NCBI RefSeq assembly: GCF_049075655.1
Contig: NZ_CP157522.1
Span: 288,001 to 352,000, forward strand
Length of the DNA: 64,000 nucleotides
Reading direction: 5' to 3'
Source: Methanothermococcus sp. Ax23
Lineage (GTDB): Archaea > AGJL01 > Methanococci > Methanococcales > Methanococcaceae
The translations under genes and the position numbers were made by a program. Of this stretch, positions 15,479 through 58,026 are shown piece after piece (position 1 is the first letter of the stretch; each line of letters begins with the position of its first letter). Below the pieces are notes generated by a model. The model had not been told where the DNA came from. It ran no database searches and saw only the letters and a program-made list of their open reading frames with translations.

Positions 15479-15589
15479 TTTTTATTTTAGGCAACTATAT
15501 TTGTTAATTTAAATACATAGTTAAATTTAGGTTCCAAAACGAACGAAGTGAGTTTTGGACTTTGGGTAGCATCCTTTTTTAAAGGATGC

Positions 15590-15637
15590 GTTTGAATCTA
15601 CTCTTCTGCACCATTTTTATTTTAGGCAACTATATTT
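15590..15637 (+). repeat. Degenerate second tRNA-Leu 3' end with duplicated downstream flank
   Basis: CTGCACCATTTTTATTTTAGGCAACTATATTT identical at 15471-15502 and 15606-15637, preceded by decayed T arm GTTTGAATC. Confidence 0.8.
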
Positions 15638-15721
15638 ATTAATTGGAATATATTGATTAATATTTAACAGAAAATTTTTAAATCATAATATCCATAATAT
15701 TTATTACTAATAGGGGATATT

Positions 15722-16507
15722 ATGAAAATAGCTTTGGTGTTTGACTGCTCAGGAACACTTGTGCGTGTTAAACGAATTATTAAAGATGTGGATTCTCAGA
15801 AATTTTTATGCGATAATCAAACAGTGGATATTGTGGATGAAAAAAAGGGGAGAGCATTAATTATTATAAAGGAAAATATTAACTTAATGGGTCCAAATCC
15901 TGAAATGCCCATAGTAGATTTACTTAGTAAAACTGAATGGGGAATATCATACTGCAATCCCCCAATAATTAAAGAAAATATTTTAAAAGACAGAAAAACC
16001 AAACTAAAAGAACTACAAGACCCCACCAATATATTAAATAGATTTGAGATAGGGACTGATTACGGCTATGCTTTAATTGTTGATACTATAAACGGTAAGA
16101 TAGAATACACCATAGCAACTGGGGGCTGTGTATTTCCAGAAGTGCCTGAAACTATTAAAAAATTAAAGGAAATGAAAATAAAGGTTTTTGTAGCATCTGG
16201 GGATGGCAAGTATGCTGTTGAAAAGTTAAGTGAATTGATTGGAATAAATAAAAAATATATCATGCCTGAGGCTCACCAAAATCTCAAAAAGGAATTGATA
16301 ATAAATTTAAAAAAAGAAGGATATAAGGTTATAATGGTAGGCGATGCATCAAATGATGTTCCAGCAATGCTTGAAAGCGATTTATCTGTGATTACACTTC
16401 AAAATGGAAATGTTTCAAAAAAGGCATTAGATGTTTCAGATATAAAAATAGAAAATATCAAAGAAATTATAGGCGTAGTTGAAGAGCTCAGAAAAACAGA
16501 GCAATAA
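15722..16507 (+). CDS. HAD-superfamily soluble P-type ATPase-like protein
   Basis: DCSGT, ASGD and MVGDASND motifs. Confidence 0.85.
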   Translation: MKIALVFDCSGTLVRVKRIIKDVDSQKFLCDNQTVDIVDEKKGRALIIIKENINLMGPNPEMPIVDLLSKTEWGISYCNPPIIKENILKDRKTKLKELQDPTNILNRFEIGTDYGYALIVDTINGKIEYTIATGGCVFPEVPETIKKLKEMKIKVFVASGDGKYAVEKLSELIGINKKYIMPEAHQNLKKELIINLKKEGYKVIMVGDASNDVPAMLESDLSVITLQNGNVSKKALDVSDIKIENIKEIIGVVEELRKTEQ

Positions 16508-16569
16508 AACATAAAAATAGTATAAAAAGTAATAAAATAAAAAAAATAAAATAAAAAATTAAATATTAA

Positions 16570-17784
16570 TTAGAACGTTTTTATTTCCCCTTCTATTACT
16601 TTATCCCTAACTTCTGTAATGTTGTTCAACCATTTTTCTGCGATTTCTTTTGCTTTTGGTTCAATATCTTTTAAATCATAACCTTCTTCTGTAATGATTT
16701 CAATGTCAAGGATTTTTGGCTCGTTTATTGGTTTTCCTATCTGGCTGAGTATTCTTACATAGCACTCCTTAACTCCATCGAGCTCCGCTACATCACTTGC
16801 AATTAAGTTTGCTAATATGTTGTATATCTTTCCAATATGGTTTATAGGGTTCTTACCGCTTGTAGCTTCCATACTCATAGGTCTAAATGGTGTAATTAAT
16901 CCGTTTGCCCTGTTTCCTCTTCCAACAGAACCATCATCCCCCATTTCTGCGGATGTTCCTGTTACTGTTAAGAATATACTATCCTCAGTATCCGCTGTGT
17001 TTATACATACCTCAACTTCATAGCCATCGGCAAGTTTTTTTGCCAGTTCTTCCACTTTTGCCTTTGCCTTTTCTTTTACTTCAGTGTATTCCTCAATTGA
17101 ATTCACATATTTATCCACAACTGCCATGGCTATTGTTAATGTAATCTTTTTACCTTCTCTTAATCCCATAACTTTTATGTCTTCTCCAACAGCAGGGAGC
17201 TCCTTCTTCAACTCATCGCTGTTTAAAAGTTTTTCAGTTTCAAAAACAAGTTTTTCTGTAATACTGAATGGAGCATGACCTACCCCAAATGATGTATCGT
17301 TTGCCAGTGGGATGTCTGTTTTTTGTCTGTCAAACACTTCCACTAAATCCACAGAACCCTGCCCGATTCTGCAATCTACAACAATATCTTTTTCTAAATC
17401 GGCATTTCTCAAAACCTTTTTTAAGTATTCTCTTGCCGCATTTACTGCAACGGTTCCAACTGGAAGTTTTATTGTTTCGTTTTTCTCCCTATCAAATACT
17501 TCCATAGTAGCCCTACCTGACAAAAGAACGTATATTGGGCTCACCATATGCCCCCCACCTAATTTCGGGTAGGCATAACCACCAACGAGCTCTACCTGGT
17601 CGGTGTTGTGATGAAGTATTGTTCCCATCTTTTCCTTATACATCTTGCACAATGCCGCACTTACACTTTCTGCTATACCATCACAGATACTGTCTGGGTG
17701 TCCCAATCCTTTTCTTTCTACAATTTCTGTTGGTCTTTCTTCTATTGGAGTAATGTCTAATTTTTTAACTACTATATTTGCCAA
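16570..17784 (-). CDS. mat: Archaeal S-adenosylmethionine synthetase
   Basis: [37 protein letters not shown]. Confidence 0.97.
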
Positions 17785-17942
17785 TTACATCACCTAAAAT
17801 ATCAATAAATTAATTTATATTAAATTTATACCGCCTTAAATCAAACCATAAAATATAATAAAGAATATATTATTTAATGATTTCTATTCTATTTTCCTAT
17901 CTTTTTTAACCTATTATATGTCTTTATATACCTTTATATCTG

Positions 17943-19244
17943 TTATATGTTTTTATTATATATTTTTATAAGCATTTCTACCTTTTTAATTACATCAACT
18001 GAATCATGACCAAGCACCCGTATCATCGGCTCCTTTCCATCTCCGCCTCTATCGTAGATAATGTCGGGAGCTCCCCCAAACTTTTCACATGCAAATTTTG
18101 TCCCCCACTCCATTGAAGATACATTTTCTGGTTCGTCTCTTCTGTCGAAAGATGACACGGTGAAACCGCAATCTTCATTTTCAAGGATATTGATAAGTTT
18201 TTTAGAATATTTTATATTCATACAGCTTCTTATTTTAGGGTCATAATGGTTCGCTGCAAGTATTATTTTTGATATATGCTCCGAAGCTCCAAACTCTATA
18301 TTCCCAACAACATAAAACTCTTCGGAGCTCATGCCATTATTTACAATTCCTCCAAGTTTGTTTTTTATTATCCTTCCAGTTAATGCCGCAATATCTTTAT
18401 AACTCTTTGGAAGAACAAGCCCTTCTGCAATATTTGAGCCAACTTCTGGGACAAAATCTTCAAAATTCATCTTTTTTAACAAATAAATGGCATAATTAAG
18501 GTTTTTTATAACTCTTTCTTTATTTATATATGTTGGATTTGAGTTATAGCCGTATTTTGTTTTATTGGCATAGATTACAGAAGATAATACTACATTCTTT
18601 GCCTCCTTAATGGCATGGACAATATCGTATCCTTTTGCCATGAACGAAGCAATTGCGGAAGAAAAAACACATCCTGTCCCATGAACCTCTTTATTTATTT
18701 TTTTTCCTTTAAATATTCTTAATTCTTTGTTGTTGTTATATAAAAGTTTGTCATCTGTTCCAGTGATTAATATGTAATTATTGTTATTTAGGTTCTCAAA
18801 TTCATCAAAATTCTTTATTATATTATATTCTTCTTTATTTGGCGTAATTATATGAGATTTTTCAAATAATTTAAAATATTTGGCAATTAACTCATTATCT
18901 ATAAAATCATATCCTGTGGTAGATTTTAGAACAGGGTCGCAAATAATTTTAAAATCATATTCTTTTTGATATTTTAGTATTAAATCTATGGCATCATTAT
19001 TCAATACGCCAGTTTTTACAATAGACACTTCAAAATCTTCAAAAATAGCATTTAATTGATTTTCTATCTCTTCCTTTGGTAAATCGATTTTACCATATAC
19101 TTTTAAATTGTTCTGGGGGATTATAGCACTAATTGCCGTTAATGGATTACAACCTAGCACTTTAATTGTTTTTGCATCTGCAACAATACCTGCTCCTCCT
19201 GTTGGGTCATATCCGCCTATTGATAGCACATTCAACTGTTTCAA
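17943..19244 (-). CDS. thiDN: Bifunctional HMP-P kinase / thiamine-phosphate synthase ThiDN
   Basis: GYDPTGGAG and HGTGC (ThiD); PEVGSN...FGASEH...GKEPMI (ThiN). Confidence 0.92.
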   Translation of the reverse strand: MKQLNVLSIGGYDPTGGAGIVADAKTIKVLGCNPLTAISAIIPQNNLKVYGKIDLPKEEIENQLNAIFEDFEVSIVKTGVLNNDAIDLILKYQKEYDFKIICDPVLKSTTGYDFIDNELIAKYFKLFEKSHIITPNKEEYNIIKNFDEFENLNNNNYILITGTDDKLLYNNNKELRIFKGKKINKEVHGTGCVFSSAIASFMAKGYDIVHAIKEAKNVVLSSVIYANKTKYGYNSNPTYINKERVIKNLNYAIYLLKKMNFEDFVPEVGSNIAEGLVLPKSYKDIAALTGRIIKNKLGGIVNNGMSSEEFYVVGNIEFGASEHISKIILAANHYDPKIRSCMNIKYSKKLINILENEDCGFTVSSFDRRDEPENVSSMEWGTKFACEKFGGAPDIIYDRGGDGKEPMIRVLGHDSVDVIKKVEMLIKIYNKNI

Positions 19245-19345
19245 AAAATCACCGTATTACATCATATTTATTTAATATTATTATAATTATTATTTAGGTC
19301 ATATTTCCTATTGTATTCAAATAATAGTTAGTATAAATGGTTATA

Positions 19346-20146
19346 TTATAATTCATCAATAAAAACTATTTCACTATTCCCATTTTCTTTAAGCCAATTG
19401 ATTAATTTTTCAGCATACTGCAACTTTTTTATTTTAATATCGTCTGCCTTTTCAATATCATTCTTTAAATAGGGTCTGGAATATTTGGTGGTATATTTTC
19501 CAAAGTCCATGCCACATAATATTATCATTTTAGCTCCAAAATGCTCTGCAAAAAAACAGCATCTATCCCCGTCTGTGAATCCACCGTAGTTTATAAGATA
19601 GAGAATATCCTTTGGAACCTGCGAGCTCCCAACAATATTTTTTAATTTTGGTGCGTATGTTTTTATATTATCTATATTATCGCCATGTGCATGAACTACA
19701 ACAACAGAACCTCTTTCATTGCTTTCAAATATTGAGTTTAAATCACCATCTAAATCCGAAACAATTATATCTGGAACAATATTTTCTTCTAAAAGTGCCT
19801 TTGTGGCACCATCTGCGGATATTATTATGAAATTTTTGTTTTTGTCATTATTATCATTATTATCTTCTTCATTATTATTTTCATTAACATTATTTTCAAT
19901 TAATTCTTTTACAATTTTAACATGCTTTTTTAAAGATGGTCCAGCTCCAAAAACATAAACATCTTTGTTTTTTATCAGTTCATCCATATTATTTAATGAA
20001 ATACTATTTTTCGTATCTTTTATTATATCACATAGCATTAAGGCACTTTCCAAATCATCCGCTTTACTAAATCCAAAATCATCCATAATTTCATTGTATA
20101 ATGGCTCCCATTCTCTTAATTCCATAGTATCATCTTTTTTTATCAT
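19346..20146 (-). CDS. mptE: 6-hydroxymethyl-7,8-dihydropterin pyrophosphokinase
   Basis: GAGPSL, ADGA, SDLDG, HAHGDN, GGFTDGDR, GMDF. Confidence 0.9.
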   Translation of the reverse strand: MIKKDDTMELREWEPLYNEIMDDFGFSKADDLESALMLCDIIKDTKNSISLNNMDELIKNKDVYVFGAGPSLKKHVKIVKELIENNVNENNNEEDNNDNNDKNKNFIIISADGATKALLEENIVPDIIVSDLDGDLNSIFESNERGSVVVVHAHGDNIDNIKTYAPKLKNIVGSSQVPKDILYLINYGGFTDGDRCCFFAEHFGAKMIILCGMDFGKYTTKYSRPYLKNDIEKADDIKIKKLQYAEKLINWLKENGNSEIVFIDEL

Positions 20147-20198
20147 TAATATTTATTGAAATATTAATTGAGATATTATATTGGTGTGTTATATGTTA

Positions 20199-20915
20199 TT
20201 ATTTAATTATATGGATGGTCTCGTCCTTTGATTTTACAACAACATTTTTAATATATTCTTTTGCAATCTTCCCGAGCTCTACAAGTTCATTTGTTGTAGG
20301 TTCTCTCATTTGTTTATATTCCTCTTTCCAGGCATGTTCTCTGTCAAATTGCTGAATAGTGTATAAATCACAGCCCTTTACAGTTTTGGATATTTCTATT
20401 ATATCCTTCTCATCCATTAAATCAGGAATAAATGTTGTTCTACATTCAATAAAAACATTATTTTTTTTGCAGTAGTTTAGGAGCTCCGGTATATTTTTTC
20501 TTATCTCTTCCCCGTCGTAGTCAGTAATATTTTTGTATTTTTCAAAGGCACATTTTACATCAAGGGCAATATAATCTATTAATTTACCATCTATTAAATC
20601 CTTTACAACCTCAATATTTGTTCCATTTGTATCAAGTTTTACTGAAAAGCCCTCTTTTTTTGCAATCTTGCAGAGCTCCTTTAAATCGTCAGGTTGAAGT
20701 GTTGGCTCCCCTCCACTTATCACTATTGCCTCTGCAAACATTAAATCTATATTGTTAAATACTTCCTCAGGCGTCATCTCATATATATTTTCCATCATAT
20801 GTTCATAGTTATGACAGTATCCGCATTTCATATTGCAATCACTCATAAAAACAACGGCTGAGCATTTTTTTGGATAATCTATTGTTGATACATCTATAAT
20901 TCCAAAAACTTTCAT
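20199..20915 (-). CDS. nrdG: Radical SAM anaerobic ribonucleotide reductase activating protein
   Basis: CNMKCGYCHN, SGGEPTL, KLDTNG. Confidence 0.8.
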   Translation of the reverse strand: MKVFGIIDVSTIDYPKKCSAVVFMSDCNMKCGYCHNYEHMMENIYEMTPEEVFNNIDLMFAEAIVISGGEPTLQPDDLKELCKIAKKEGFSVKLDTNGTNIEVVKDLIDGKLIDYIALDVKCAFEKYKNITDYDGEEIRKNIPELLNYCKKNNVFIECRTTFIPDLMDEKDIIEISKTVKGCDLYTIQQFDREHAWKEEYKQMREPTTNELVELGKIAKEYIKNVVVKSKDETIHIIK

Positions 20916-23349: not shown

Positions 23350-23434
23350 CGCGGAGGCCGAGATTTGAACTCGGGTTGGGCAAAGCCCAACGGGATTAGC
23401 AGTCCCGCGCCGTACCAGGCTGGGCCACCTCCGC
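23350..23434 (-). tRNA. tRNA-Ser(GCT)
   Basis: Reverse complement folds as a cloverleaf with CT-GCT-AA anticodon loop, long variable arm and GTTCAAATC; CCA not encoded. Confidence 0.95.
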
Positions 23435-23446: not shown

Positions 23447-24031
<585 letters not shown>

Positions 24032-24837: not shown

Positions 24838-25452
24838 ATGGTGGAAATTAAATTAAATAAAAGAAATGATAGGTCGTGGGATAAAGGTTTGGATTTTGAT
24901 AACATATATCGTCTATTTGAAAGAGACATCGTGAAAATAAGGGAAAAACTAAACAATGGAATAGTTTATAAAAAAGACATTAAACGCCTTGCTTATTTAA
25001 CCATTGCCCTATTTCAACTTAGAAACGGATGCAGGATTGGAGAGGCAATTGAGGGCATGATTTTGATATGTAAAAATAACAATTTAAATTGGGACAAGCC
25101 TATTGAAGTTAGAGTTAAGGTAGAGAAAACAAAAAAAACAGTATCATACAGAGATATGGTTCTTCCATCAATCATTACCAAGCATGATGTAGAGCTCATA
25201 CGGGATGCAGTTTTAAATTTGGAAAATGCCAAAAGACCAAGAATGAGGATATACACTTGGTTAAAAAATCACTATGGAATAAATACACATTCTTTAAGGT
25301 ATGCATTTATTACCAAATATGCTGTAATGAACACATCACCACAATTAATTGCAAAAATGACAGGTCATGTGAATTTAAACCATATTATTACATATACGCA
25401 AGAGAAAGTGGCAAAACAAATGTTATATGATTTGGAAAAGCATATAAAATAA
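24838..25452 (+). CDS. Short tyrosine recombinase (204 aa), paralog of 3366-3920
   Basis: WDKGLD, QLRNGCRIGEAIEG, KVEK, GINTHSLRY, TGH, YTQ. Confidence 0.9.
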   Translation: MVEIKLNKRNDRSWDKGLDFDNIYRLFERDIVKIREKLNNGIVYKKDIKRLAYLTIALFQLRNGCRIGEAIEGMILICKNNNLNWDKPIEVRVKVEKTKKTVSYRDMVLPSIITKHDVELIRDAVLNLENAKRPRMRIYTWLKNHYGINTHSLRYAFITKYAVMNTSPQLIAKMTGHVNLNHIITYTQEKVAKQMLYDLEKHIK

Positions 25453-25453: not shown

Positions 25454-26677
25454 TTAAATATTCGGAATATAATTCCAAGAACCACTCACCAAACCTTTTT
25501 GGGACAACTGCCCGAGAGCTCTCAAAGTCTTCCTATCCAACACAGTGGGTTTTTGATTTTCAAAGTATGTGCCAGGTAATGGCATGAAGTAATGTGCATG
25601 AGCTCTTCCATTCTTTTTTATAATGTAGTGTAGGAGCTCCATGCTATCTTTTCTATGAAACTCATTTTCATTTGGGAATCCAAATATAAAATCAACCTTT
25701 GGTATTAAGTCGTAATCTCTGCATAAATCAACGGCATTTAACACATCATCCACAGTATGCCCTCGCCTTATATATCTCAACATCCCATCACTACCACTCT
25801 GAGCTCCGAAATGTAAAAACTTATTATCGCAGTATTTTACAACCAATTCAATTGTATCTTTTTGAATAAATTCAGGTCTAACCTCTGATGGAAATGTTCC
25901 AAAAAATAGCTTTCCTTTTCCTTCACTTAGTTTTTTTAATAGTTTTTCTAATTTTTCAATGTTTGGTTTTCGAAGCGAATCCGAAGGATTCGCTGACTTG
26001 CAAAAACTCGAAGAGTTTTTGCCAAGTGTTCCAGTTTTCGAGCCATAGCAAAAGGCATTTGGGCTTATTACTCGTGTATCTGTGTTGGGATTTGTAAGTT
26101 TTAAAATGCTTTCTATGCTTCTATGTCTTACATTGTTGCCGAATATTTGAGGCGTCTGACAAAATCTACATTTGTATGGGCATCCCCTCGTTATTTCAAC
26201 TGGTGTAAGTGGTTCAATCTTTTCAAATTCATCTAAATTGATTACTTGTTCTCCTATGATGATTTTTTCATTTAGTTCCTTTCTATCATTTTTATCGTCT
26301 TTATCATCTTTATTTTCGTCAAGTTCTTTTAATTTGTTTATTATTTTTGGCAGTGTAATCTCCCCCTCACCAACAACCACATAATCAAATCTCATTTTTA
26401 TAGTATCTTTTGGAGCTCCTGTTGGGTGAGCTCCTCCTGCAATCAAAATTGGTTTATTTGATTTAGTTAATTTTTTTAATTTATTTATTTCTTTTATTTC
26501 CTTTGCAATTTTACCCTTACTTAGTGTTGTAAATGAATAAATTAATATATCTAAATTATTATTTTTAATATTGTTAATTATTTCTTCAAAATTTTTAAAT
26601 AATTTTCCACCAATCAGTGGATACAATCGTGATATGCTGTATTTGTTTTTTGAAGTTAATCTAAATCCAATATCCAC
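25454..26677 (-). CDS. B12-binding domain radical SAM protein carrying an in-frame palindromic insertion
   Basis: GGAHPT, GEGE, RGCPYKCRFCQTP, GAQSGSD. Confidence 0.9.
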   Translation of the reverse strand: MDIGFRLTSKNKYSISRLYPLIGGKLFKNFEEIINNIKNNNLDILIYSFTTLSKGKIAKEIKEINKLKKLTKSNKPILIAGGAHPTGAPKDTIKMRFDYVVVGEGEITLPKIINKLKELDENKDDKDDKNDRKELNEKIIIGEQVINLDEFEKIEPLTPVEITRGCPYKCRFCQTPQIFGNNVRHRSIESILKLTNPNTDTRVISPNAFCYGSKTGTLGKNSSSFCKSANPSDSLRKPNIEKLEKLLKKLSEGKGKLFFGTFPSEVRPEFIQKDTIELVVKYCDNKFLHFGAQSGSDGMLRYIRRGHTVDDVLNAVDLCRDYDLIPKVDFIFGFPNENEFHRKDSMELLHYIIKKNGRAHAHYFMPLPGTYFENQKPTVLDRKTLRALGQLSQKGLVSGSWNYIPNI

Positions 26678-26693: not shown

Positions 26694-27098
26694 CTGACCT
26701 ACTCCAACGAGTGAACTCGTTGGGTTCTCGCTTACGGTAGTAAGCGAGCAACGAAATCACGAAGTGATTTCGTCTAATTTTAGCAGGGTTTAACCCTACA
26801 TGGGTGGCCAAGCCCACTACCCCTATCTCCGTTTAGGAGATTCAGGGCTACGCTGTATCACTAAGATTACTCTATCAAAACAAACCACGATACCAACCAC
26901 TACCAGCGGTAGAGTTTTCACTAACCCTACCCATTAGAACTTGGACTGGTAGCGTTACTTACTATTAATCTTCACATATTTATATTTTACTACTTACTAG
27001 CCGATATAATGTCCGCCTCTCATCCAATCTCATAAGAGATTTTACAAAACTATGTTTTGTATAACGATTAAAATCGTTGGCTTTCTCGGCGGTTTATC
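26694..27098 (-). mobile_element. IS200/IS605-derived MITE (about 400 bp) with putative omega-RNA scaffold
   Basis: Subterminal hairpins CCAACGAG/CTCGTTGG and an interrupted CCAACGATT/AATCGTTGG; end motif GGAGTAGGTCAG on minus strand; GC-rich structured core; YRGLF tnpB-tail remnant. Confidence 0.65.
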
Positions 27099-27167
27099 GT
27101 AAAAAATAAAACAAAAAAAGATTTTTATAATTATTTTATATTATATGTTAAAAAATAAAAATTTAAA

Positions 27168-30726: not shown

Positions 30727-31007
30727 AAAACCACCAAAAAATATTAACAAAATCTTTTAGATTTTGCGGTTTAATTCGTTTGAAAAGATAATTTTGAGTA
30801 TTGATAATAATTAAATTAATATTATATAAATTTTGTCTATAACTTTTTTAACCAAAAATAAAAAAAGGAAATATTAGATATTATTAATATTTACAATTTT
30901 TTGCTTATCGTAGTGAAACGGAGAGCTACAACTCGAAGTTCTGTTCAATTGAGGTAAAATGGGAGTATTGAATCAAGATTTCGTCTAATTGATTGTTATT
31001 TAAGTTA

Positions 31008-46641: not shown

Positions 46642-46980
46642 GTGAATTACTCCTCTCTTACGGAAGGAGCTTCCTGCTTCATTAAGCTTTTGCCCTCCAC
46701 AGGCACAACGGACTCTCCCAGCCCTGACTTTATTATATCTTAGAAAAGATTTGTAAGTCCTGCATATACTTCTAGGGACTATAACGCATCCAATATATTT
46801 TATAACAAAAACTAATATAAATATTTTTCGTCGGATTTCCGAGCGATAGCGAAGGAAAGTAATGAAATGCGAAGCATTTCATCTGATTTCATCTCCTCCC
46901 TTACGGAAGGGGATGTCTGAGCGATAGCGAAGACATTTATAAATTCCGAAGGAATTTATCAAACTTCCCGCCGACATTAG
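46642..46980 (-). mobile_element. Non-autonomous IS605-type MITE related to the tnpB element, retaining omega-RNA region
   Basis: Reverse complement matches tnpB 3' end (AAAGTCAGGGCTGGGAGAGTCCGTTGTGCCTG ... GAGTAATTCAC); both end hairpins with CGTAAG loops; TTTAA target at left end. Confidence 0.85.
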
Positions 46981-47024
46981 TTAAAAAATAAAAAAATTAG
47001 ATGTTATTAATAAATACTATTAAT

Positions 47025-48170: not shown

Positions 48171-48372
48171 ACAATCACGCTCTCTTTTTTATTTTTTCTT
48201 TTATATTTTTTCTATAATCTTGGTTAATAAGGATTTCACACGAAAGGGTGAAATTTGTTTACGGGCATTTTTTATTTTAATTTATCCAAAATCAATATAT
48301 CGTTTAAAAATATTTATACTTAATGATTTCGTTGATAAGGTATATTCCATATTTATAATTTTCAAATTTTAA

Positions 48373-49786
48373 CATATTCCGCAAGAAGTCCCCTCCCGTA
48401 AGGGAGGGGATGAATTATGATAAAAACCTTCGGTTTTTATATATTTCCTTCGCTTCGCTCGGAAATGCGGGCATTATTTATATATAGCATAAGTAGCAAC
48501 ATACTATTTATAAGTTATCAAACTGTGAGGCAAATGTTGAAAAGGACTTATAGGTTCAGAATTTATCCTTCAAAGAGTATCCAAAGAACAATAGAGGAAC
48601 ATCTAAATATATGTAGATACCTCTATAACTATCTTTTGGAACAGAAAACCAAAAATCCAAAACTAAACAAAATGAATACTCAAAAACTAATAACCGAACA
48701 TAAAAAGGAAAATCCTGAACTTAAAAAAGTCCATTCAAAAGTCCTTCAAATGGTAAATAATAAACTCTGGGGAAACCTCAAAGCATTAGGCAAACTAAAA
48801 CAGAATGGGCATAAAGTCGGTAAGTTAAGATTCAAATCATCAAAGAATCGATATAAAACATTAGAATACAATCAATCAGGTTTTAAGATTAAGGATAACA
48901 AACTTCACCTATCTAAGATAGGAGAAATTCCTATAAAACTACACCAAAACATTAAAGGAAAGATTAAAAGTGTAATCATAAAAAAAGAACCAACAAACAA
49001 ATGGTTTGCTTTCTTCCAAGTTGAGGAAGAACCTAAACCACTGCCTAAAACTAATAAGGTTGTAGGTATCGATTTAGGAATCGATGGTTATACCATCGAT
49101 TCAGACGGGAACAAGTTTGAAAATCCAAAGTTTATAGATAAAACATTGGATAAAATAAAGAGAGTCCAAAAGAACCTATCACGAAAGGTTAAAGGTTCTA
49201 ACAATTGGAATAAAACTAAACTAAAACTTATCAAGGTTTATGACAAGTTAAAGAATCAGAAAAACGATTTTCTACATAAACTATCAAGATATTACATAAA
49301 TAACTACGATAAAATAGTTTTAGAGGACTTAAATATAAAATCAATGGTTGAAAATGGAAAAGGTAAGACCTTAAACCGTCATATTCTTGACAGTTCTTGG
49401 AAAAAATTTATAAATCAACTTCTCTACAAGGCGGAGGGTGCTGGTAGAGAAGTAATATTAGTAAATCCGTCTTATACTTCCAAAAAGTGTTCCAACTGCG
49501 GGCATGTTGTTAAAGACTTAAAACTTTCAGATAGAACCTTTTTTTGTCCTGTCTGCGGTTGGAAAATTGATAGGGATTATAACGCATCTCTAAATATATT
49601 AAAGTCAGGGCTGGGAGAGTCCGTTGTGCCTGCCGAGAGAAAACCTCTACTCCAAACCATTTCTTATAAAGAAGTGGTTTTGGGGCAAGTTTTCTCAATG
49701 AATCAGGAAGCCTTGCCCGAAGGGCGAGGGCTACGAAAACCGAAAGGTTTTCGTTTAACCCCGTCCGTAAGGGCAGAGTAATTCAC
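48373..49786 (+). mobile_element. IS200/IS605-family solo-tnpB element (IS1341-like)
   Basis: TTTAA at 48368-48372; left hairpin CCCCTCCC-GTAA-GGGAGGGG; right end ...GTAATTCAC; no tnpA. Confidence 0.88.
48534..49781 (+). CDS. tnpB: RNA-guided endonuclease TnpB
   Basis: ATG 48534 after GTGAGG; RuvC GIDLG, VLEDL and DRDYNA; zinc finger CSNC/CPVC. Confidence 0.95.
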   Translation: MLKRTYRFRIYPSKSIQRTIEEHLNICRYLYNYLLEQKTKNPKLNKMNTQKLITEHKKENPELKKVHSKVLQMVNNKLWGNLKALGKLKQNGHKVGKLRFKSSKNRYKTLEYNQSGFKIKDNKLHLSKIGEIPIKLHQNIKGKIKSVIIKKEPTNKWFAFFQVEEEPKPLPKTNKVVGIDLGIDGYTIDSDGNKFENPKFIDKTLDKIKRVQKNLSRKVKGSNNWNKTKLKLIKVYDKLKNQKNDFLHKLSRYYINNYDKIVLEDLNIKSMVENGKGKTLNRHILDSSWKKFINQLLYKAEGAGREVILVNPSYTSKKCSNCGHVVKDLKLSDRTFFCPVCGWKIDRDYNASLNILKSGLGESVVPAERKPLLQTISYKEVVLGQVFSMNQEALPEGRGLRKPKGFRLTPSVRAE

Positions 49787-49921
49787 TGGATATGGATGTA
49801 ATTTAGTATATATTGTATTTATTATATTATGGGTTTTAGGACAATATATGAATATATAAATAGCGGCTTCCATAATATATTTAACTGACATATATGTTCA
49901 TCGACTAAAAAAGGGGAGATT

Positions 49922-52438: not shown

Positions 52439-52996
52439 TCATTCTTTTTTCTTCTTTTTGTCTTCTTCTATCCATTCTAATTTTCCCAATCCTGGCTGTC
52501 TCATGGTTAGTGCTATTTTACTACCTCTCTTTCTAGCCTCTCTTAAACTGACTGCTACAATTCTTGCTCTTACTTTATCTCCTTTTTCAATTACTCTTCC
52601 AGTTTCTTTTCCAATTATTGCCTCTCTTTTTGGGTCATAGGATACATAATCATCCATAATCTGGGATATGTGTATAAGCCCGTCAAGAGGTCCCAATCTT
52701 ACAAAGACACCGAATTCCACGACATCAACAACTTCCCCTTCTACAACTTCGTAGAGCTCCGGCATATAACATAAAACATCGAAAACTGCTGGGTGGTATG
52801 CTGCACCATCTCCATAAATTACCTTACCATCTCCAATTTCTCGTATTTCTCCGATTGATAATATAAATCCCATATCTTTATCAAGTATGCCCTCGTATTT
52901 TTCCATAAGTATTTTGTGTAGGGACTCGTTTAGCGGAGCTCCGAACATATATGGCGGAACTCTTACGGTATCTGAAATAGTTACTAATCTATACAA
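52439..52996 (-). CDS. rpo7: RNA polymerase subunit Rpo7 (E')
   Basis: GDGAAYH, S1 domain GPLDGLIHISQ, MRQPGLG. Confidence 0.97.
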   Translation of the reverse strand: MYRLVTISDTVRVPPYMFGAPLNESLHKILMEKYEGILDKDMGFILSIGEIREIGDGKVIYGDGAAYHPAVFDVLCYMPELYEVVEGEVVDVVEFGVFVRLGPLDGLIHISQIMDDYVSYDPKREAIIGKETGRVIEKGDKVRARIVAVSLREARKRGSKIALTMRQPGLGKLEWIEEDKKKKKE

Positions 52997-53317
52997 ATAA
53001 TCACCTCATATTTTTAAATAGAGCCATTATGATAGAACCATTATACTAATTATAATAATAAATATATTATATGCAAAATGATTTAAAATTAGAAATTTCT
53101 AAAAAAATCAAATATTTTTAATGTTATTTCCTTGGAAATAGTAGAATAGAAAAGTCAAGGTATTTTATACTAAAATAATATGTATTATTTATATGTTATA
53201 TATGTTATTGTATATTTATTTTATTCATATTTTAAATATTTTTTAAATATTACTTAATTATTTTACAAATAATATATTAATTTTATAATATATAAACTCA
53301 ACGATTTTGGTGAGATT

Positions 53318-54970
53318 ATGGTTGATTATGATAATACAGATGCCATTTATAAAAAATTTATAAGGTGTATAATAGATAAATTATTGTTAAATAAGGATAA
53401 GTTAAACTCCCTTCCACCAAAGAGGAAAAAACAAAAGGTTGAAGATATTAAGGCACAGTGTTTGAGAAAATTTGATTTAAATATTGGATTTCCCCCAAAT
53501 TCAGAAATAATAAAATATGCAACAGAAGATGAAAAGAAAGAAATAATACCTCTTCTTAGAAAAAAACCAATTAGAACACTATCAGGGGTTGCAGTGGTGG
53601 CAGTAATGACATCCCCTGACAAATGCCCCCATGGAAAATGCTTCTTCTGTCCCGGGGGGGCTGAAAGCACCTTTGGGGATGTTCCTCAGAGCTATACTGG
53701 TAAGGAGCCCGCCACAATGAGAGGTCTCATGTATGGATTTGACCCATATATTCAGACAAAGGAGAGAATAGAACAGCTTGAAAAAGTGGGGCATCCAACG
53801 GACAAAATAGAATTAATTATAATGGGCGGAACATTTCCTGCAAGACCTATTGAATATCAGGATAGTTTTATAAAGGGATGCCTTGATGCCATGAACGGCA
53901 CAATATCAGAAACACTTGAAGAGGCACAGAAAATAAACGAAACCGCAAAACATAGATGTGTGGCCATTACAATTGAAACAAGACCTGATTACTGTAAAGA
54001 AAAGGAAATAAACCAAATGCTTAAATTAGGTGCTACTAGGGTAGAGCTCGGAGTCCAAACAATATATAACGATATTTTGGAGTATATAAAAAGAGGACAT
54101 ACTGTTGAAGATACCATAAAAGCAACGCAATTATTAAAGGACAGCGGTTTAAAGGTGTCATACCATATTATGCCGGGGCTTCCTAAATCTTCAAAGGAAC
54201 TTGATAAAAAGGTATTTTATGAAGTATTCAATAATCCAGATTTTAAACCGGATTTAATAAAAATATACCCGTGCCTTGTGATAGAAGGAACTGAGTTATA
54301 TGAAATATGGGAAAAAGGAGAATTTAAACCAATAAATGATGATGAAGCAATAGAGCTCATCACCTATGCAAAATCCATAATGCCAAAATGGGTAAGGACT
54401 TCACGAATACAGAGGGATATTCCAGCAACAGTAATTGAGGAAGGAGTTAAGAAAAGCAATTTAGGTGAGCTCGTTTATAAGAACCTTGATAAAAAAGGCA
54501 TAAAATGTAAGTGTATAAGATGTAGGGAAGTAGGGCATGTAATGTATAAAAAAGGAATTATTCCAGATGTTGAGAATATAAAATTATGTAGGGAAGATTA
54601 TATTGCAAGTGGCGGAACAGAGATATTCCTATCCTACGAGGATGTTAAAAATGACATACTTATTGGATATTTAAGATTAAGGATACCGTATAAGCCATTC
54701 AGACCAGAGATAGACGACAAAACCGCATTGGTAAGGCAGTTGCATGTGTGCGGTCAGGAGCAGAAATTAACCGAAAAGGAAGGGAAAGAAACAGCATGGC
54801 AGCATAAAGGATACGGTAAATTATTATTAAAAGAGGCTGAAAGAATAGCAAAAGATGAATTTGATAAAAATAAATTGCTGATTACAAGCGGTATTGGTGC
54901 AAGGGAATATTATAGAAAGTTAGGATATGAACGAGTTGGGGCATACATGGGGAAAATGTTATATAAATAA
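53318..54970 (+). CDS. elp3: tRNA uridine(34) acetyltransferase Elp3
   Basis: RTLSGVA, CPHGKCFFCPGG, ETRPD, QHKGYG. Confidence 0.95.
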   Translation: MVDYDNTDAIYKKFIRCIIDKLLLNKDKLNSLPPKRKKQKVEDIKAQCLRKFDLNIGFPPNSEIIKYATEDEKKEIIPLLRKKPIRTLSGVAVVAVMTSPDKCPHGKCFFCPGGAESTFGDVPQSYTGKEPATMRGLMYGFDPYIQTKERIEQLEKVGHPTDKIELIIMGGTFPARPIEYQDSFIKGCLDAMNGTISETLEEAQKINETAKHRCVAITIETRPDYCKEKEINQMLKLGATRVELGVQTIYNDILEYIKRGHTVEDTIKATQLLKDSGLKVSYHIMPGLPKSSKELDKKVFYEVFNNPDFKPDLIKIYPCLVIEGTELYEIWEKGEFKPINDDEAIELITYAKSIMPKWVRTSRIQRDIPATVIEEGVKKSNLGELVYKNLDKKGIKCKCIRCREVGHVMYKKGIIPDVENIKLCREDYIASGGTEIFLSYEDVKNDILIGYLRLRIPYKPFRPEIDDKTALVRQLHVCGQEQKLTEKEGKETAWQHKGYGKLLLKEAERIAKDEFDKNKLLITSGIGAREYYRKLGYERVGAYMGKMLYK

Positions 54971-55079
54971 ATACCATTACAGATATATTTAATCAAAAAT
55001 AAGCATTACTCTATAACTAAAACATATGATAAAAAATAAAAAAAATAAAAATAAAAATAAAACATTAAAAGGTGAAAAA

Positions 55080-55733
55080 ATGAAGTTTTTCTTAGATACT
55101 GCAAATGTTGATAAAATTAGAGAATTCGCTGAATTAGGAATGGTAGATGGCGTTACAACAAACCCAACACTTATTGCAAAGGAAGGCAGAGATTTCCACG
55201 AAGTAATTAAAGAAATATGTTCAATTGTAGATGGCCCAGTAAGTGCCGAGGTAACTGCACTTGATGCAGAAGGTATGATAAATGAAGCAAGAGAGCTCTC
55301 AAAACTTGCAGATAATGTTGTGATTAAAATACCTATGACAAAGGAAGGAATGAAGGCAGTAAATGTTTTATCAAAAGAAGGTATAAAAACAAATGTTACC
55401 CTTATCTTCTCAGCAAATCAGGCATTAATGGCGGCAAAAGCAGGTGCTACCTATGTATCCCCATTCGTTGGAAGATTGGATGATATTGGTCAAAATGGAA
55501 TGCAGTTAATAGCTGAAATTGTTCAGATATTCAGAAACTACGACATAAAAACAGAGATAATTGTGGCATCTGTAAGACATCCAATGCATGTAATAGAAGC
55601 TGCTGAGCTCGGTGCAGACATTGCAACAATTCCATTTGCAGTATTGGATAAAATGTTCAACCACCCATTAACAGATAAGGGTATTGACGCGTTTATGAAG
55701 GATTGGGAAGAATATTTGAAAAATAAAGAGTAA
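55080..55733 (+). CDS. tal: Transaldolase / fructose-6-phosphate aldolase family
   Basis: FFLDTA, GVTTNPT, VIKIP, SPFVGR; start ATG 55080 after GGTGA. Confidence 0.92.
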
Positions 55734-55779
55734 AAAATAAAATATCAATTTATTTTTTTATAATATTTTCAGTAATAAA

Positions 55780-56643
55780 TTATAAATATCCTTTTTCTTG
55801 CATTTTTTCTTTATAATATGTTGAGATAGACCTATATAAAGCCACAGAAGTGAAAAATCCTATAAATGATAATAGGACAGAATTAATAACTGCGGAAATG
55901 ATTAATAATATTACATTATTGTCTGATAATGCCGCCCCAACTCCCATAAACAATCCCGGCAATGATGCTATAAATGACAATGCCATCATTATTATGATTA
56001 ATACAATTACCAATAGAACGTATTTTAAAGATAATAGACTAATGATTTTTTTGAATTCAAAGAATCCTTTAAATCCAACATTTGCAAAATTTACAGACGC
56101 CAAGTAGAAATAGAACATATACAATAATGCTATCAACAAATAGGCACCCAATACTGCGAAAAAGTATATTATCAACAGCAGAGGAATTCCAATTAAGTAG
56201 ATTCCGTATCCAATTATTGATGCAATTATTATGAATGGCAGGAATACAATTAAGGCGAGTAATAGGCTTCCAATGTAGAACATTATACCTTTTTTAAATA
56301 GGTCATACCATCCTTCCCATTCTGGCAGTTGAGTATCGTATGATTCCACAGTATTTTTAGCCAATTTCATATAGTATCCATATTGGAGTGAGCCAAATAT
56401 TATGGATAAAAATATAATTAATGCAAATACCCCAAGAAGACCCAACAATATGGAGTAGTCAAAACTTGCTGATGACTCCATATTTTGAACATGGTTATTT
56501 GCACGCAACATGGCATCGAATACTTGGGAAGGTAGCATATACATTAATCCAAATACCCCTCCAACAAATATTTTTTTCCAATCGGACATGGCATATTTAA
56601 ATGGTTCTTTAATGTATTTTTCAACAAACATATTTTCTCCCAT
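55780..56643 (-). CDS. DUF4013 family membrane protein
   Basis: GY..K.AKNTV...LPEW...LF..G pattern; multiple TMs. Confidence 0.8.
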   Translation of the reverse strand: MGENMFVEKYIKEPFKYAMSDWKKIFVGGVFGLMYMLPSQVFDAMLRANNHVQNMESSASFDYSILLGLLGVFALIIFLSIIFGSLQYGYYMKLAKNTVESYDTQLPEWEGWYDLFKKGIMFYIGSLLLALIVFLPFIIIASIIGYGIYLIGIPLLLIIYFFAVLGAYLLIALLYMFYFYLASVNFANVGFKGFFEFKKIISLLSLKYVLLVIVLIIIMMALSFIASLPGLFMGVGAALSDNNVILLIISAVINSVLLSFIGFFTSVALYRSISTYYKEKMQEKGYL

Positions 56644-56769
56644 TTATATAACCACCTTTTTTGATATTAAATATTACTTAGGTATTCAAATAATATATTT
56701 TTAAGTAATCAATAAAAAGTTTATTAACAGAAATGTTTATATGTGAGTTAATCATATTGTTTAATGTCC

Positions 56770-56990
56770 AGCTCTCATCAACTTCAACTTAAACTTTAAA
56801 CGCTCCATTGACATCTGCATGGAATATTTTTTTAAGCAACTCCCGAGCTGTTCCCTTATAGAACAGTAGGGAGGATGGACAGTCCCATAATAATACGGGA
56901 GCGGGTGTCGATGATAAAGGTATTCAAAATATATCGGATATAATTACATGAAACTTATGGTATATTTTAAATATCTTTTGAGATACCTTC
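56770..56990. pseudogene. Scrambled tnpB/IS605 remnant
   Basis: Minus strand 56798-56821 encodes HADVNGAF (TnpB RuvC-III motif); adjacent CTCCC/GGGAG hairpin. Confidence 0.45.
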
Positions 56991-57049
56991 ACACCCTCTT
57001 ATTTTTAATTTTTCTTTTTCTTATTTTTATTTTTTTAATTATTATTTAA

Positions 57050-58026
57050 TAGTATGGGTCAAAATATATAAACTATACTAAATATAACATTATAAAAAAG
57101 ACGATATTATGAGGGCTGAGGAAGTAGTAAATGAGATAATTACATCAGATTTAATTGACCAAATCCCTAAACGAAGAAAGGTAGGGAGGAAAGGATATAA
57201 TTTAGAGTTGAGGCTTAAACTATTAGTGTATGCCTTTTTAAAAGGCATACACTCAAATAGAGCGTTAGTATTACACTTACAAAATAATCCACAGATTTTA
57301 ACTGCATTAGGATTTAAATCCTGCCCTGGTAGAAGAACCATCGATAGATGGAAAAAATCCCTAGATGAAGAATTGCATGCAATAATTACTTTATTAGGTG
57401 ATAAATATATTGAACTGAATAATCCTGAATGGTCAATATACGATAGCACCCCAATCAAAGACGAACAAGATGAGGATGGAAAGATAGGATATAACAGTGA
57501 AGGAATGTTTAAAGGCTTCAAATTACATTTAGCAGTGGATAAAAAGGGGATACCATTAAGAGCAGAATTTACCACAGCAAATACTCATGATTGTAAAGTG
57601 GCTGATAAATTATTAGTATGCACTAAGAAATCCTGTGCAGATGCGGGTTATGATTCAAAAGATTTAAAAAAATTTCACAAATCCTTTGGATTTGCTTATT
57701 TCCTCGCTATCGCTCGGAAAAGCCATGGAATTATACCAAAACGAACTAATAACTGCCCACAATCCAAGAAGATTAGGTAAGAAAAATAAAAAGAAACTTC
57801 CGAAGGAAATTTCTAAGATAAGAGTTAAAATAGAACATACCAATTCGATATTAAAGAACAGATTTATGAATAAGTTTTGGATTAACATTAAAGGCTATAT
57901 CCGTAAAAAAGTATTCTGTCTCTGTGCAGTGGCTTCTGCACAGGTTTTAGCGTTATATAATCTCATTACCAGAGGTTACCCTTATATGAAAGTCTTAGAG
58001 GTTAGGGTGTAATATGACCCACACTA
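57050..58026 (+). mobile_element. DDE insertion sequence (IS5/IS982-like), 977 bp
   Basis: 12-bp TIRs TAGTRTGGGTCA; 11-bp target duplication TTATTATTTAA at 57039-57049 and 58027-58037. Confidence 0.88.
57109..58012 (+). pseudogene. DDE transposase frameshifted by an insertion of about 46 bp
   Basis: DST, GFKLHLAVD and ADAGYD in one frame, RVKIE in another; frames rejoin if 57673-57718 is removed. Confidence 0.85.

Follow-up and report, generated by a model that had tools for sequence, protein, structure and literature searches.

A probable family of miniature double-hairpin insertion elements nesting at IS200/IS605-type ends in Methanococcales

How can a pair of small stem-loops come to stand again and again at the ends of insertion sequences in one archaeal chromosome? 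The window, which is the whole stretch of 64,000 nucleotides analysed here, holds nine clear intervals that a first-pass annotation had described as two adjacent stem-loops each, and all nine indeed fold so, at -8.0 to -18.9 kcal/mol with DNA energy parameters (Table 1). It is probable that the cassettes are a family of miniature non-autonomous DNA insertion elements, 35-57 bp long and built of one or two hairpin modules, which is distributed across Methanococcales and would represent a little-studied type of selfish DNA.

Table 1. Features of the window, with coordinates, strand, and basis or context.
Feature	Coordinates	Strand	Basis or context
F5 double hairpin, repeat unit of about 70 bp	15533..15589	+	between direct repeats of a tRNA 3' end (att scar)
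Radical-SAM/B12-binding ORF	25454-26677	-	Pfam
F3-subfamily cassette, 57 bp, two hairpins	about 25971-26027 (earlier listing 25974-26026)		in frame (19 aa) in the radical-SAM/B12-binding gene
MITE of tnpB element ISX	26695..27102 (approximate)	+	IS608-like ends; carries X49 and X35
X49, 49-51 bp	about 26729..26777	+	4-5 nt from element end hairpin; filled/empty copies
X35, 35-37 bp	about 27028..27062	+	within arm of other ISX end hairpin; filled/empty copies
Two decayed cassettes	30909..30990	+	head motif, degraded hairpin B and tail, against intact family members
IS-W left-end fragment (MITE)	about 46700-46990	-	
Cassette at inner edge of that fragment	46836..46887	+	hairpin A with mini-hairpin loop, B with C-GAA-G
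Cassette directly outside IS-W left-end hairpin	46913..46959	+	IS-W copies 199k and 336k empty here
IS-W, tnpB-only IS200/IS605-type element	48367..49787 (approximate); tnpB ORF within 48417-49781	+	Pfam; ends from three-copy alignment
Cassette, 50 bp	48417..48466	-	7-8 nt past IS-W left-end hairpin, after GATGAATT; paralogues
Double hairpin just upstream of IS-W right-end hairpin	49711..49758	+	in 3' tail of tnpB ORF
DDE_Tnp_1 transposase ORF	57109-57780		Pfam
Cassette, 48 bp, in frame in that ORF	about 57670-57717	-	Pfam; paralogues

The cassettes are assembled from recurring parts. Module B has an A/T-rich stem of 7-10 bp with a C-GAA-G closure, while the stem of module A ends in a mini-hairpin of the GCGNAGC/GCGNNAGC type or in another C-GAA-G loop. 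The short linkers are conserved, as is a tail resembling C(T)AAT. Among the 1,936 perfect hairpins of the genome (stem of at least 7, loop of 3-8), TTC (63) and then GAA (56) are the commonest loops, with a C-G closing pair in 110 of these 119; three Markov-3 simulated genomes gave 1,546-1,646 hairpins, 7-14 GAA/TTC loops and 16-25 adjacent hairpin pairs, against 159 such pairs in the real genome, so that both the C-GAA-G/C-TTC-G triloop hairpins and the adjacent pairs outnumber those of the simulation by a factor of about 7-10. The mini-hairpin motif occurs 400 times (175-204 simulated), and a 14-mer loop quoted in the first-pass annotation is present ten times in the whole 1.66-Mb genome. 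That annotation's picture of recurrent loops on stems which differ and yet stay paired is thus borne out, while its idea of purely structure-defined cassettes must be given up, since there are sequence subfamilies with defined ends that are conserved across genera. One of them is bounded by the hairpin-A stem on the 5' side and the CTAAT tail on the 3' side in the genome under study (G000) and in G004, G016 and G037, and the 57-bp cassette has the same ends in three genes. The loops carry exactly the motifs (GCGAAGC, CCGAAGG) of mini-hairpin DNA (GCGNAGC/GCGNNAGC, CCGAAGG), which is described at single-strand priming sites and phage promoters; such DNA is reported to resist nucleases and to bind SSB poorly, a 9-mer has a Tm of about 82 C, and the RNA version is far less stable (PMC13037366). 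The match with these motifs was counted for a DNA-level reading, as were their excess over the simulation and the loops that stand in both orientations within the same flanks. In what that source describes, the motifs serve as signals on the single strands of phages and plasmids, whereas no priming of replication or transcription is indicated for the cassettes.

Are the cassettes later arrivals in the places where they stand? X49 and X35 are each present in some near-identical MITEs and missing from others, and full-length copies of ISX vary in the same way: of 25 fully scored MITEs, 15 carry both, four only X35, three only X49 and three neither, and in copies about 99% identical the cassettes are the sole difference. 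Two ISX copies that are 87% identical (893k and 431k) have as their only indels of 5 bp or more three cassettes of 51, 47 and 37 bp, and a diverged full-length copy is free of all three. An unbiased self-BLAST for indels of 20-150 bp between paralogous repeats gave 53 rows, all of them hairpin cassettes (22 X49, with one locus listed twice, 27 X35 and 4 others), and one site exists in three states: vacant, filled by a 43-bp cassette, or filled by a nested one of 93 bp. Cassettes can also disappear seamlessly. The ISX MITE itself is missing at the orthologous place in G033.

Genes tell the same. The 57-bp insert of the radical-SAM gene is missing from all seven aligned orthologues, a 90%-identical one included, with a 1-nt junction ambiguity and no duplication, and it has relatives of equal length and ends in the gene of a P-type ATPase and in that of an M20 peptidase. 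The latter insert (57 bp) is missing in G033, as is a 48-bp insert in the gene of a GHMP kinase, and in trpD the difference is confined to the 30-bp B module; all three in-gene cases testable in this comparison, which covered 0.78 Mb and left seven further cases with no match there, support secondary gain. The DDE insertion sequence has its cassette in one of eight copies, the seven paralogues being shorter by 41-52 bp across the insert point (exactly 48 bp in the four that were aligned), and the nearest relative of this cassette, with 87% identity over 53 nt, lies at an unrelated locus. Where cassettes persist within genes, their length is divisible by three. At the junctions, inspected by eye, no target duplication was found, and the ambiguity, mostly 0-3 nt, reaches 6 nt in two events. 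Filled and empty paralogues and orthologues, with their seamless boundaries, bear out the earlier claim of secondary insertion, the double hairpin at 49711-49758 apart: the cassettes are gained secondarily, with no target duplication, as subfamilies with defined ends.

To which places do they go? IS-W, whose kin are IS605 elements with intact tnpA in G007 and G038, has cassettes before, inside and after the left-end hairpin in different copies; different cassettes stand at four positions around one IS605-type left-end hairpin, and another such hairpin has a cassette within its 3' arm. The site of the 50-bp cassette is empty in the G007 relative and in the 199k and 1308k paralogues, both of which carry other cassettes elsewhere in the left end, and is filled in the G038 IS605 and in the IS-W copies of G033, which carry two cassettes. 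The cassette directly outside the hairpin is repeated together with its site in a full copy (C1:1308441-1308490), and the cassette of the inner edge is missing from other IS-W left ends, comparators that do not cover exactly the same junction. The view that cassettes recur at IS end hairpins is therefore upheld by the four positions, the 3' arm and a same site that is filled in a different genus; cassettes nest beside or inside hairpins, and chiefly those that bind the transposase at the ends of IS200/IS605-type (tnpB) elements.

One alternative holds that the IS ends had the cassettes from the start, as functional parts that bind the transposase or form modules of the tnpB guide RNA, and that some copies have lost them. 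X49 and X35 are indeed as conserved as the ends of the MITE, but this origin is very improbable, as different cassettes occupy different positions in homologous ends, the diverged ISX copy has none of the three, related cassettes lie in housekeeping genes and unique intergenic DNA, and their orientation relative to tnpB varies between elements; it is rejected for most copies. The exception is 49711-49758, which stands at the place expected for a guide-RNA scaffold and is missing from the matching place in the G007 IS605. Since it is identical in all three paralogous copies, nothing shows it to be secondary, and it is either native to IS-W or an old resident.

The first-pass annotation had offered hyperparasitism or a disabling of IS elements as the role of the cassettes. 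A host device, or a selected means, that disables IS elements by disrupting their end hairpins is scarcely credible: two insertions do lie within the 3' arm of a left-end hairpin, but the cassette-bearing MITEs are the majority and the most similar copies, and because they have multiplied, disabling is not supported. Cassette-bearing tnpB elements keep open tnpB frames, and a cassette-bearing IS-W copy occupies a G033 site that is empty in G000. Moreover, two thirds of the cassette contexts are outside mobile DNA. The cassettes would rather be hitch-hiking hyperparasites of IS elements, and they are amplified passively as their host IS elements and MITEs multiply.

In the window, eight of nine copies lie in IS ends, a transposase or an att scar, as was said at first, but genome-wide the association is not near-exclusive: of 52 independent contexts, 17 belong to repeated or mobile sequence, whereas the unique remainder divides into 12 cases in ORFs and 23 between genes, and the enrichment in mobile DNA is real and modest, about 2-3 fold. 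Covariance-model matches are present in at least 20 of 40 genomes of the class, with counts that are minima, as scoring took in 150 of about 2,500 candidates in each genome, and that come from related genomes which are not independent; in sister-family genomes the largest match count listed is 10, again a lower bound.

By what mechanism can such units be gained and lost? It might be that replication does so with no dedicated enzyme, if a fork stalls at a stable hairpin and the nascent strand either copies a module via 0-6 nt of microhomology, giving an insertion, or jumps across the base of a folded cassette, giving seamless loss, the most stable mini-hairpins being copied best. Many observations suit template switching of this kind. 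Insertions cluster beside or inside existing hairpins, cassettes nest in cassettes, the junction homologies are as short as given above, and loops are present in both orientations between identical flanks. Modules A and B also reassort: no full-length donor above about 90% identity was found for young cassettes, their modules being identical elsewhere in other combinations, and at one orthologous site hairpin A is unchanged (23/23) beside a different hairpin B, a pattern no less compatible with recombination or template switching than with transposition. One insertion of 49-52 bp is an inverted copy of its own flank, a local inverted-duplication hairpin from which it follows that enzyme-free hairpin creation by snap-back synthesis occurs in the lineage. 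Against the reading as insertion elements it also counts that of 50 indels of at least 25 bp between G000 and G033, only 10 are strongly hairpin-forming. However, members of one subfamily that were inserted independently agree in ends and length (57 bp in three genes, and the same cassette ends across four genera), which random switch points would not yield, some of the genes hit have no hairpin at the empty site, and the sequences are conserved between families of the order, which implies that units are copied faithfully and as a whole. Template switching, the main rival, seems rather unlikely, and a structure-specific mechanism on single-stranded DNA is favoured over it. The cassettes may, at somewhat less than even chances, act as single-stranded DNA hairpins moved in trans by a putative structure-specific cut-and-rejoin activity, which would work at replication forks like the seamless 'peel-and-paste' of HUH/Y1 enzymes.

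Which enzyme could provide this activity? This genome, 98.9% complete in 2 contigs, has no HUH/RAYT or Y1 transposase gene. Of 40 genomes of the class, six have a Y1 transposase and one has a reverse transcriptase, the IS607-type serine recombinase is patchy, and none of them tracks the cassettes, Y1 being missing from the cassette-rich G037; the co-distributed HUH/RAYT nuclease or reverse transcriptase that the first reading had envisaged was thus not found across the 40 genomes, which also suits template switching. Only tnpB tracks the cassettes, in 17 of 20 cassette-positive genomes, and part of this co-occurrence is hitch-hiking. The putative mover would lie outside the families searched and would not be a Y1 transposase encoded in this genome.

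Another possibility is that the cassettes are minimal passengers of the IS200/IS605 type, similar to PATEs, REPs or REPINs, moved in trans by a Y1 HUH transposase or RAYT that a virus, a plasmid or a relative carries and that was lost from this genome. The seamless gain and loss without duplication, the hairpin architecture, the co-occurrence with tnpB and the intact tnpA in three relatives all speak for it, and ISX MITEs have multiplied to at least 25 near-identical copies in a genome with no tnpA, so that a trans source of such an enzyme is needed anyway. Even so, we consider it improbable: both G000 and G037 are without a Y1 gene, no conserved target tetra- or pentanucleotide was found beside cassettes in the 11-14 inspected events, unlike IS200/IS605, the two hairpins of a cassette resemble neither each other nor the end hairpins of resident IS elements, and the covariance model had no match in the IS605 copies with tnpA in G007 and G014. 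REP/BIME and REPIN with their RAYT (Y1 HUH) transposases are likewise described as short paired hairpin repeats, thought to move as single-stranded DNA with no target duplication (PMC3116915, PMC3337134, PMC3733652), but a REPIN, by these descriptions, consists of two inverted copies of the same REP and has a cognate RAYT, whereas the cassette hairpins differ and have no Y1 gene. PATEs and MITEs derived from IS200/IS605 elements are portrayed as non-autonomous, hairpin-ended and seamless (PMC3119063), and the two MITEs of the window, at 26695-27102 and about 46700-46990, are such elements; PATEs share both end hairpins and the target motif of the parent IS, while the cassettes share neither and are passengers inside MITEs.

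Among known systems, the cassettes most resemble the palindromic repeats of Methanocaldococcus jannaschii (MJRE) and the Rickettsia palindromic elements (RPE). MJREs average about 100 bp, with 141 in one genome, and RPEs are about 100-150 bp long. By their description, MJRE1-3 (Suyama, Lathe and Bork 2005, FEBS Lett) are small palindromic repeats of the same archaeal order, mostly extragenic and in some cases in frame in genes (PMC2229807, PMC2996958), while the units found here are 35-57 bp, with at most 10 matches, a lower bound, in a sister-family genome; those descriptions, as far as they characterise the repeats, contain no nesting in IS200/IS605 ends, no gain and loss in MITEs and no mini-hairpin loop motifs. 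RPEs are portrayed as selfish palindromic DNA with no known transposase, inserted in frame in housekeeping genes and tolerated by the proteins (PMC6649704, PMC2996958). They are bacterial and unrelated in sequence, and these accounts of them do not report two-module cassettes or IS-end targeting.

Two further intervals deserve mention. The DNA near 30909-30990, called a decayed copy before, indeed consists of two decayed cassettes by sequence; it folds weakly (-4.7 kcal/mol), and the intergenic region of G033 is not alignable with it. The F5 unit in the att scar is separate from the cassettes, although the GA-rich loop of its first hairpin resembles cassette A hairpins. It has many genomic copies, with one tandem array, and is present as a mere remnant at the orthologous site of G033.

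Can a family of short double hairpins arise by chance in the genome of Methanothermococcus sp. Ax23 (G000), which consists of 1.66 Mb plus a 7.7-kb contig and has 32% G+C? This genome has 1,936 perfect hairpins (stem of at least 7, loop of 3-8), to be compared with 1,546-1,646 in three genomes simulated with a Markov-3 model. The commonest loops are TTC (63) and GAA (56), and 110 of these 119 hairpins have a C-G closing pair. GAA/TTC loops number 7-14 and adjacent hairpin pairs 16-25 in the simulated genomes, against 119 and 159 in the real one, which rules out a chance origin. Folding with DNA parameters gave two adjacent stem-loops in all nine clear intervals of the first-pass annotation (-8.0 to -18.9 kcal/mol) and a weak fold in the tenth, and a GA-rich loop cited there occurs 10 times in the genome. 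Thus, the double-hairpin family reported from this window, C1:288001-352000 of G000, is real and lies far beyond chance. Dispersed small palindromic repeats of G000 amount to about 100 loci. An Rfam scan of the 64-kb window at the gathering score assigned the cassettes, as we call these inserts of 35-57 bp, to no RNA family, its sole match being one tRNA. Three of the intervals have to be reassigned, as shown in the table together with other features mentioned below.

Reassigned intervals and other features. Positions without a contig are those of the window; C1 and C2 are contigs of G000 unless another genome is named.
Position	Feature	Basis
15533-15589	Different repeat unit, in tRNA att scar	Sequence comparison
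23350-23434 (minus)	tRNA gene, ~1.4 kb from the ORF at 24838-25452	
24838-25452	ORF with weak, sub-threshold match to Phage_integrase	Pfam
25974-26026	Within radical-SAM gene, not mobile element	Pfam
30909-30990	Two decayed cassettes	
49711-49758	IS-W right-end double hairpin	
~63760-63765 (C1:351760-351765)	IS-W copy in G033 (left end on C46, right end on C11); empty in G000	
C1:38671 (outside window)	49-52-bp insertion beside 12-bp direct repeats, absent in G033 (L074/L118)	
C1:46898-48239	IS607-type element (serine recombinase and tnpB)	
C1:1510997-1512338	IS607-type element (serine recombinase and tnpB)	
C1:869118-869857 (outside window)	Seven tandem 112-bp units	
C1:904003-904109	Intergenic DNA orthologous to L068, without its cassettes	
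G033:C55:1429-2263 (L068)	Two tandem cassettes	
G037:C1:1310830-1311110 (L047)	53-bp cassette, tandemly duplicated, then partial third copy	
C2, 7,732 bp (L178)	Small replicon, 27% G+C	

Once oriented, most of the loci share a common plan: hairpin A, a linker of 2-4 nt, hairpin B, and a short C(T)AAT-like tail. Hairpin A has a variable stem capped by a C-GAA-G loop or by a GA-flanked mini-hairpin, GCGNAGC/GCGNNAGC, and in hairpin B a C-GAA-G loop closes a 7-10-bp stem rich in A/T. Subfamily F3, 57 bp long and with fixed ends, has two C-GAA-G hairpins, while X35, one of the two cassettes at the ends of the MITEs of ISX (a resident tnpB element with IS200/IS605-type ends), represents a separate subfamily of 35-37-bp units. 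Arrays of three to six hairpins are also present, and loops are found either way round inside identical flanks. By sequence match, the cassette loops carry a motif of mini-hairpin DNA, either GCGNAGC/GCGNNAGC or a short stem with a C-GAA-G cap; GCGN(1-2)AGC occurs 400 times in G000 as against 175-204 in simulated genomes, and lies within 50 nt of 40 of the 110 C-GAA-G hairpins. According to a 2026 review, a 9-mer mini-hairpin DNA has a Tm of about 82 C, is far less stable as RNA, is bound poorly by SSB and resists nuclease, and mini-hairpins, including a CCGAAGG hairpin, are found at single-strand priming sites (PMC13037366). For the cassette loops the match is one of sequence, and the thermal stability is that given in the review.

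Are the cassettes original parts of the DNA that carries them? Comparison of filled and empty paralogues and orthologues tells that they have been added, as the first-pass annotation proposed, apart from the double hairpin at 49711-49758, which is identical in all three copies of IS-W, another tnpB element, present in the window at about 48367-49787, so that nothing marks a secondary origin. In an unbiased scan for indels of 20-150 bp between paralogous repeats, every one of the 53 rows contained a hairpin cassette (22 of X49, the other cassette of the ISX MITEs, with one locus counted twice; 27 of X35; four others). Internal indels of at least 5 bp between two full-length ISX copies, which are 87% identical, are three cassettes only (51, 47, and 37 bp); in ISX, one cassette lies 4 nt off the right-end hairpin and another within the 3′ arm of the left-end hairpin. 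IS-W and its two paralogues each have one left-end cassette, with unlike stems and at unlike sites (before, inside, or 7-8 nt after the end hairpin), and the IS-W copies of the close relative G033 have two cassettes. An IS605 with an intact tnpA in G038, a further genome of the class, has a cassette after GATGAATT, a site that is empty in a relative of the element in G007 and also used in G000. One site exists in three states, being vacant, occupied by a 43-bp cassette, or occupied by 93 bp made up of that cassette and a nested double hairpin. A DDE IS present in eight copies has 48 bp inserted in frame in one of them.

The same is seen in unique genes. The 57-bp (19-aa) insert of the radical-SAM gene is missing in all seven orthologues aligned (13 were fetched), a 57-bp insert in an M20 peptidase gene and a 48-bp insert in a GHMP kinase gene are both missing in G033, and trpD differs from that of G033 by a 30-bp B module only. 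All three in-gene cases testable against G033 differ, with seven other ORFs unmatched in the 0.78 Mb of G033 compared. More cassettes lie within genes for a TPP enzyme, a P-type ATPase, a YjeF_N protein and an ATP-grasp protein (Pfam). The in-gene lengths, 57, 57, 48, 48, and 30 bp, are all multiples of three, while the non-coding inserts of 37-51 bp show no three-periodicity, a pattern consistent with selection on which inserts persist within genes. An origin of the empty alleles by deletion only is rejected by outgroup orthologues. The alignment of G000 with G033 over 616 kb shows 50 indels of at least 25 bp. Of these, 20 have at least one perfect hairpin and 10 are strongly hairpin-forming; the ten include several cassettes and single-hairpin inserts, located in the genes for GHMP kinase and M20 peptidase and their vicinity, in intergenic DNA, and, for two of the inserts, in IS-W copies of G033. 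At L068, a locus of G033, two tandem cassettes have an identical hairpin A and different hairpins B. The insertion at C1:38671, a further case from this comparison, holds an inverted copy of the flanking repeat, and its hairpin therefore arose de novo from local sequence, a signature of snap-back or template switching. Among environmental sequences, which in all four runs compared were contigs, one of 197 nt from a vent metatranscriptome library matches 46802-46998 without differences, showing presence only and not transcription; a metagenome contig skips 48406-48497, but with one side aligned over 29 nt at 88% likeness it is too weak to count.

Where do the cassettes go? The 110 C-GAA-G hairpins fall into 101 loci and, if loci are clustered on flank homology of at least 130 bp, into 52 contexts. 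On a crude ORF map of our own making, repeated DNA accounts for 17 of these, unique ORFs for 12, and unique intergenic sequence for 23. The repeated fraction is 10.6% for the genome as a whole and 21.7% for its non-coding DNA, and the cassettes are enriched in mobile DNA about 2-3 fold (binomial, 17/52 against 10.6%, p = 1.5e-5; 17/40 outside unique ORFs against 21.7%, p = 0.0025). A preference for mobile DNA is thus borne out, but it is not near-exclusive, with 35 of 52 contexts outside repeated DNA. What is striking locally is the crowding of independent insertions into some 35 nt around end hairpins of the IS200/IS605 type. The suggestion that cassettes serve to disable IS elements does not hold, as the elements carrying them are not disabled. 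The first interpretation is supported in part, for secondary insertion and for nesting at hairpins.

Gain and loss go on. The ISX MITEs in which both X49 and X35 can be scored have both cassettes in 15 cases, X35 only in four, X49 only in three, and neither in three; 13 further BLAST matches, partly scorable, stay outside this tally. Four MITE copies about 99% identical over a 250-bp middle segment represent three of these states (both; X49 only, twice; neither), which on any tree requires at least two changes of X49 and at least three of X35. Such differing states among near-identical MITEs mean that seamless gain or loss is recurrent and recent. Filled and empty pairs show seamless excision, no target duplication, and a junction ambiguity of 0-3 nt by visual reading of the alignments, with 6-nt junction homology in two events. 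No shared flank or conserved tetra- or pentanucleotide was seen by eye 5′ of the insertion in 11-14 such pairs of G000. In G037, a cassette-rich genome, four of 11 cassettes have a 5′ flank T(T/C)AAT equal to their own 3′ tail; this genome also contains L047.

What moves them? The cassettes would act as single-stranded DNA hairpins, and a structure-specific cut-and-rejoin activity, in a peel-and-paste style like that of HUH enzymes, would move them; we hold this reading tentatively, at somewhat less than an even chance. The main rival is spreading by template switching during replication, which we consider rather unlikely. No full-length source more than about 90% identical was seen for the young cassettes, and taken singly their A and B modules can be matched exactly at other loci, where they are combined differently; one orthologous site has the same hairpin A (23/23 identical) next to a different hairpin B. 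Template switching accounts for this reassortment of modules, as well as for microhomology, nesting, and flipped loops, but it leaves the fixed ends unexplained: independent insertions of one subfamily have common ends and a common length, and one subfamily keeps the same ends across four genera. Replichores could not be defined in G000 because its cumulative GC skew is too noisy.

For the cut-and-rejoin reading, candidate enzymes were sought in G000 and in its class (40 genomes, with the Methanocaldococcus family as sister family). The covariance model consists of hairpin B and flanks only, because MAFFT aligned hairpin A in a structurally inconsistent way, and its counts are lower bounds: at least 99 matches in G000 at E≤1, and matches in at least 20 of the 40 genomes at E≤0.01. 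A co-distributed HUH/RAYT nuclease or reverse transcriptase, which the first-pass annotation suggested looking for, did not emerge: the Y1/HUH transposase (PF01797) has no match in G000 and is found in six of the 40 genomes, and reverse transcriptase (PF00078) is likewise absent from G000 and occurs in one. The IS607-type serine recombinase (PF00239) has two matches in G000, one with a TAG stop in its frame, is patchy in the class, and is absent from the cassette-rich G037 and G026. Serine recombinase and reverse transcriptase are rejected as movers, since their distributions are unlike that of the cassettes. tnpB has 20 matches in G000 and occurs in 19 of the 40 genomes; with cassette calls as lower bounds, 17 genomes have both, three cassettes only, two tnpB only, and 18 neither. 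Hitch-hiking explains part of this association, and the genomes compared include related ones, which do not count as independent samples. At least 25 near-identical ISX MITEs without a resident tnpA make it necessary to assume a trans-acting or lost activity. IS-W, too, occupies a site in G033 that is empty in G000 and so moved after the two lineages split, an intact tnpA being present in neither genome. A scan of genome contigs for a 19-nt head motif was uninformative: its 18 matches are in unrelated bacteria, a number close to chance expectation, and none of the matches listed is in Methanococcales. The second contig, with neither an HUH/Rep Pfam match nor a covariance-model match, is dominated by one helicase-like ORF that apparently continues across the contig ends.

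How do the cassettes compare with known systems? They work like the palindromic repeats of Methanocaldococcus jannaschii (MJRE) and the Rickettsia palindromic elements (RPE). MJRE, to which likeness is judged by description and not by consensus sequence, are also small, palindromic, dispersed in Methanococcales, mostly extragenic (here 40 of 52 contexts outside unique ORFs), and in some copies within coding regions with the frame intact. To our knowledge, no mechanism has been established for such in-gene micro-insertions in the roughly 20 years since they became known. The cassettes differ from REP/REPIN-RAYT systems in that their genome has no match to PF01797 and in that hairpins A and B differ in stem and loop, a REPIN being two inverted copies of one REP. 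They resemble the PATEs (IS200/IS605-derived passengers) and MITEs of IS200/IS605 in lacking target-site duplication and in seamless excision, but no conserved tetra- or pentanucleotide was seen before them in the 11-14 pairs, and the end hairpins of IS-W and ISX are unlike those of the cassettes, being rich in G+C and having loops of 3-4 nt that are not GAA/TTC (in IS-W, GTAA). Unlike in classical MITEs (Correia, SMN1), no TIR spans the cassette and no target site is duplicated. By their defining features, therefore, the cassettes are neither REPINs of RAYT, nor IS200/IS605 PATEs, nor classical MITEs, and no description of them was found in the literature on palindromic or IS605-type repeats of Methanocaldococcus and Methanothermococcus. 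The feature is real and well supported, a further case of the mechanistically unsolved palindromic kind: small DNA elements with defined ends, inserted secondarily, lost seamlessly, and tolerated in frame in genes, which nest at hairpins and multiply as passengers of IS elements and MITEs. It is conceivable, if quite improbable, that single modules with ultra-stable mini-hairpin caps form a new self-propagating class of DNA in thermophilic archaea, which would home to the base of any single-stranded hairpin (transposase-binding hairpins of IS200/IS605, other cassettes, occasionally genes) via a structure-specific enzyme or the replication machinery, with arrays growing by accretion, as hyperparasites of single-strand transposons.

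G000 is unusually clean material, with MITEs about 99% identical that differ solely by the seamless presence or absence of cassettes, with independent insertions within about 35 nt of one transposase-binding hairpin, and with empty alleles in close relatives that give the direction of change; these make single-strand transposition and template switching directly testable against each other. The elements are tied to the physical chemistry of mini-hairpin DNA, which would be of importance at the temperatures at which the thermophiles of this order grow. They also bear on the proliferation of tnpB-only elements and their MITEs where no TnpA is resident, and on the way in which short in-frame insertions enter proteins. 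Each of the seven tandem 112-bp units has a double hairpin of the F5 type, a separate repeat unit of ~70 bp, resembling that at 15533-15589, and the tRNA gene with the Phage_integrase-like ORF may represent what is left of an integrated element adjoining the cassette-bearing radical-SAM gene.
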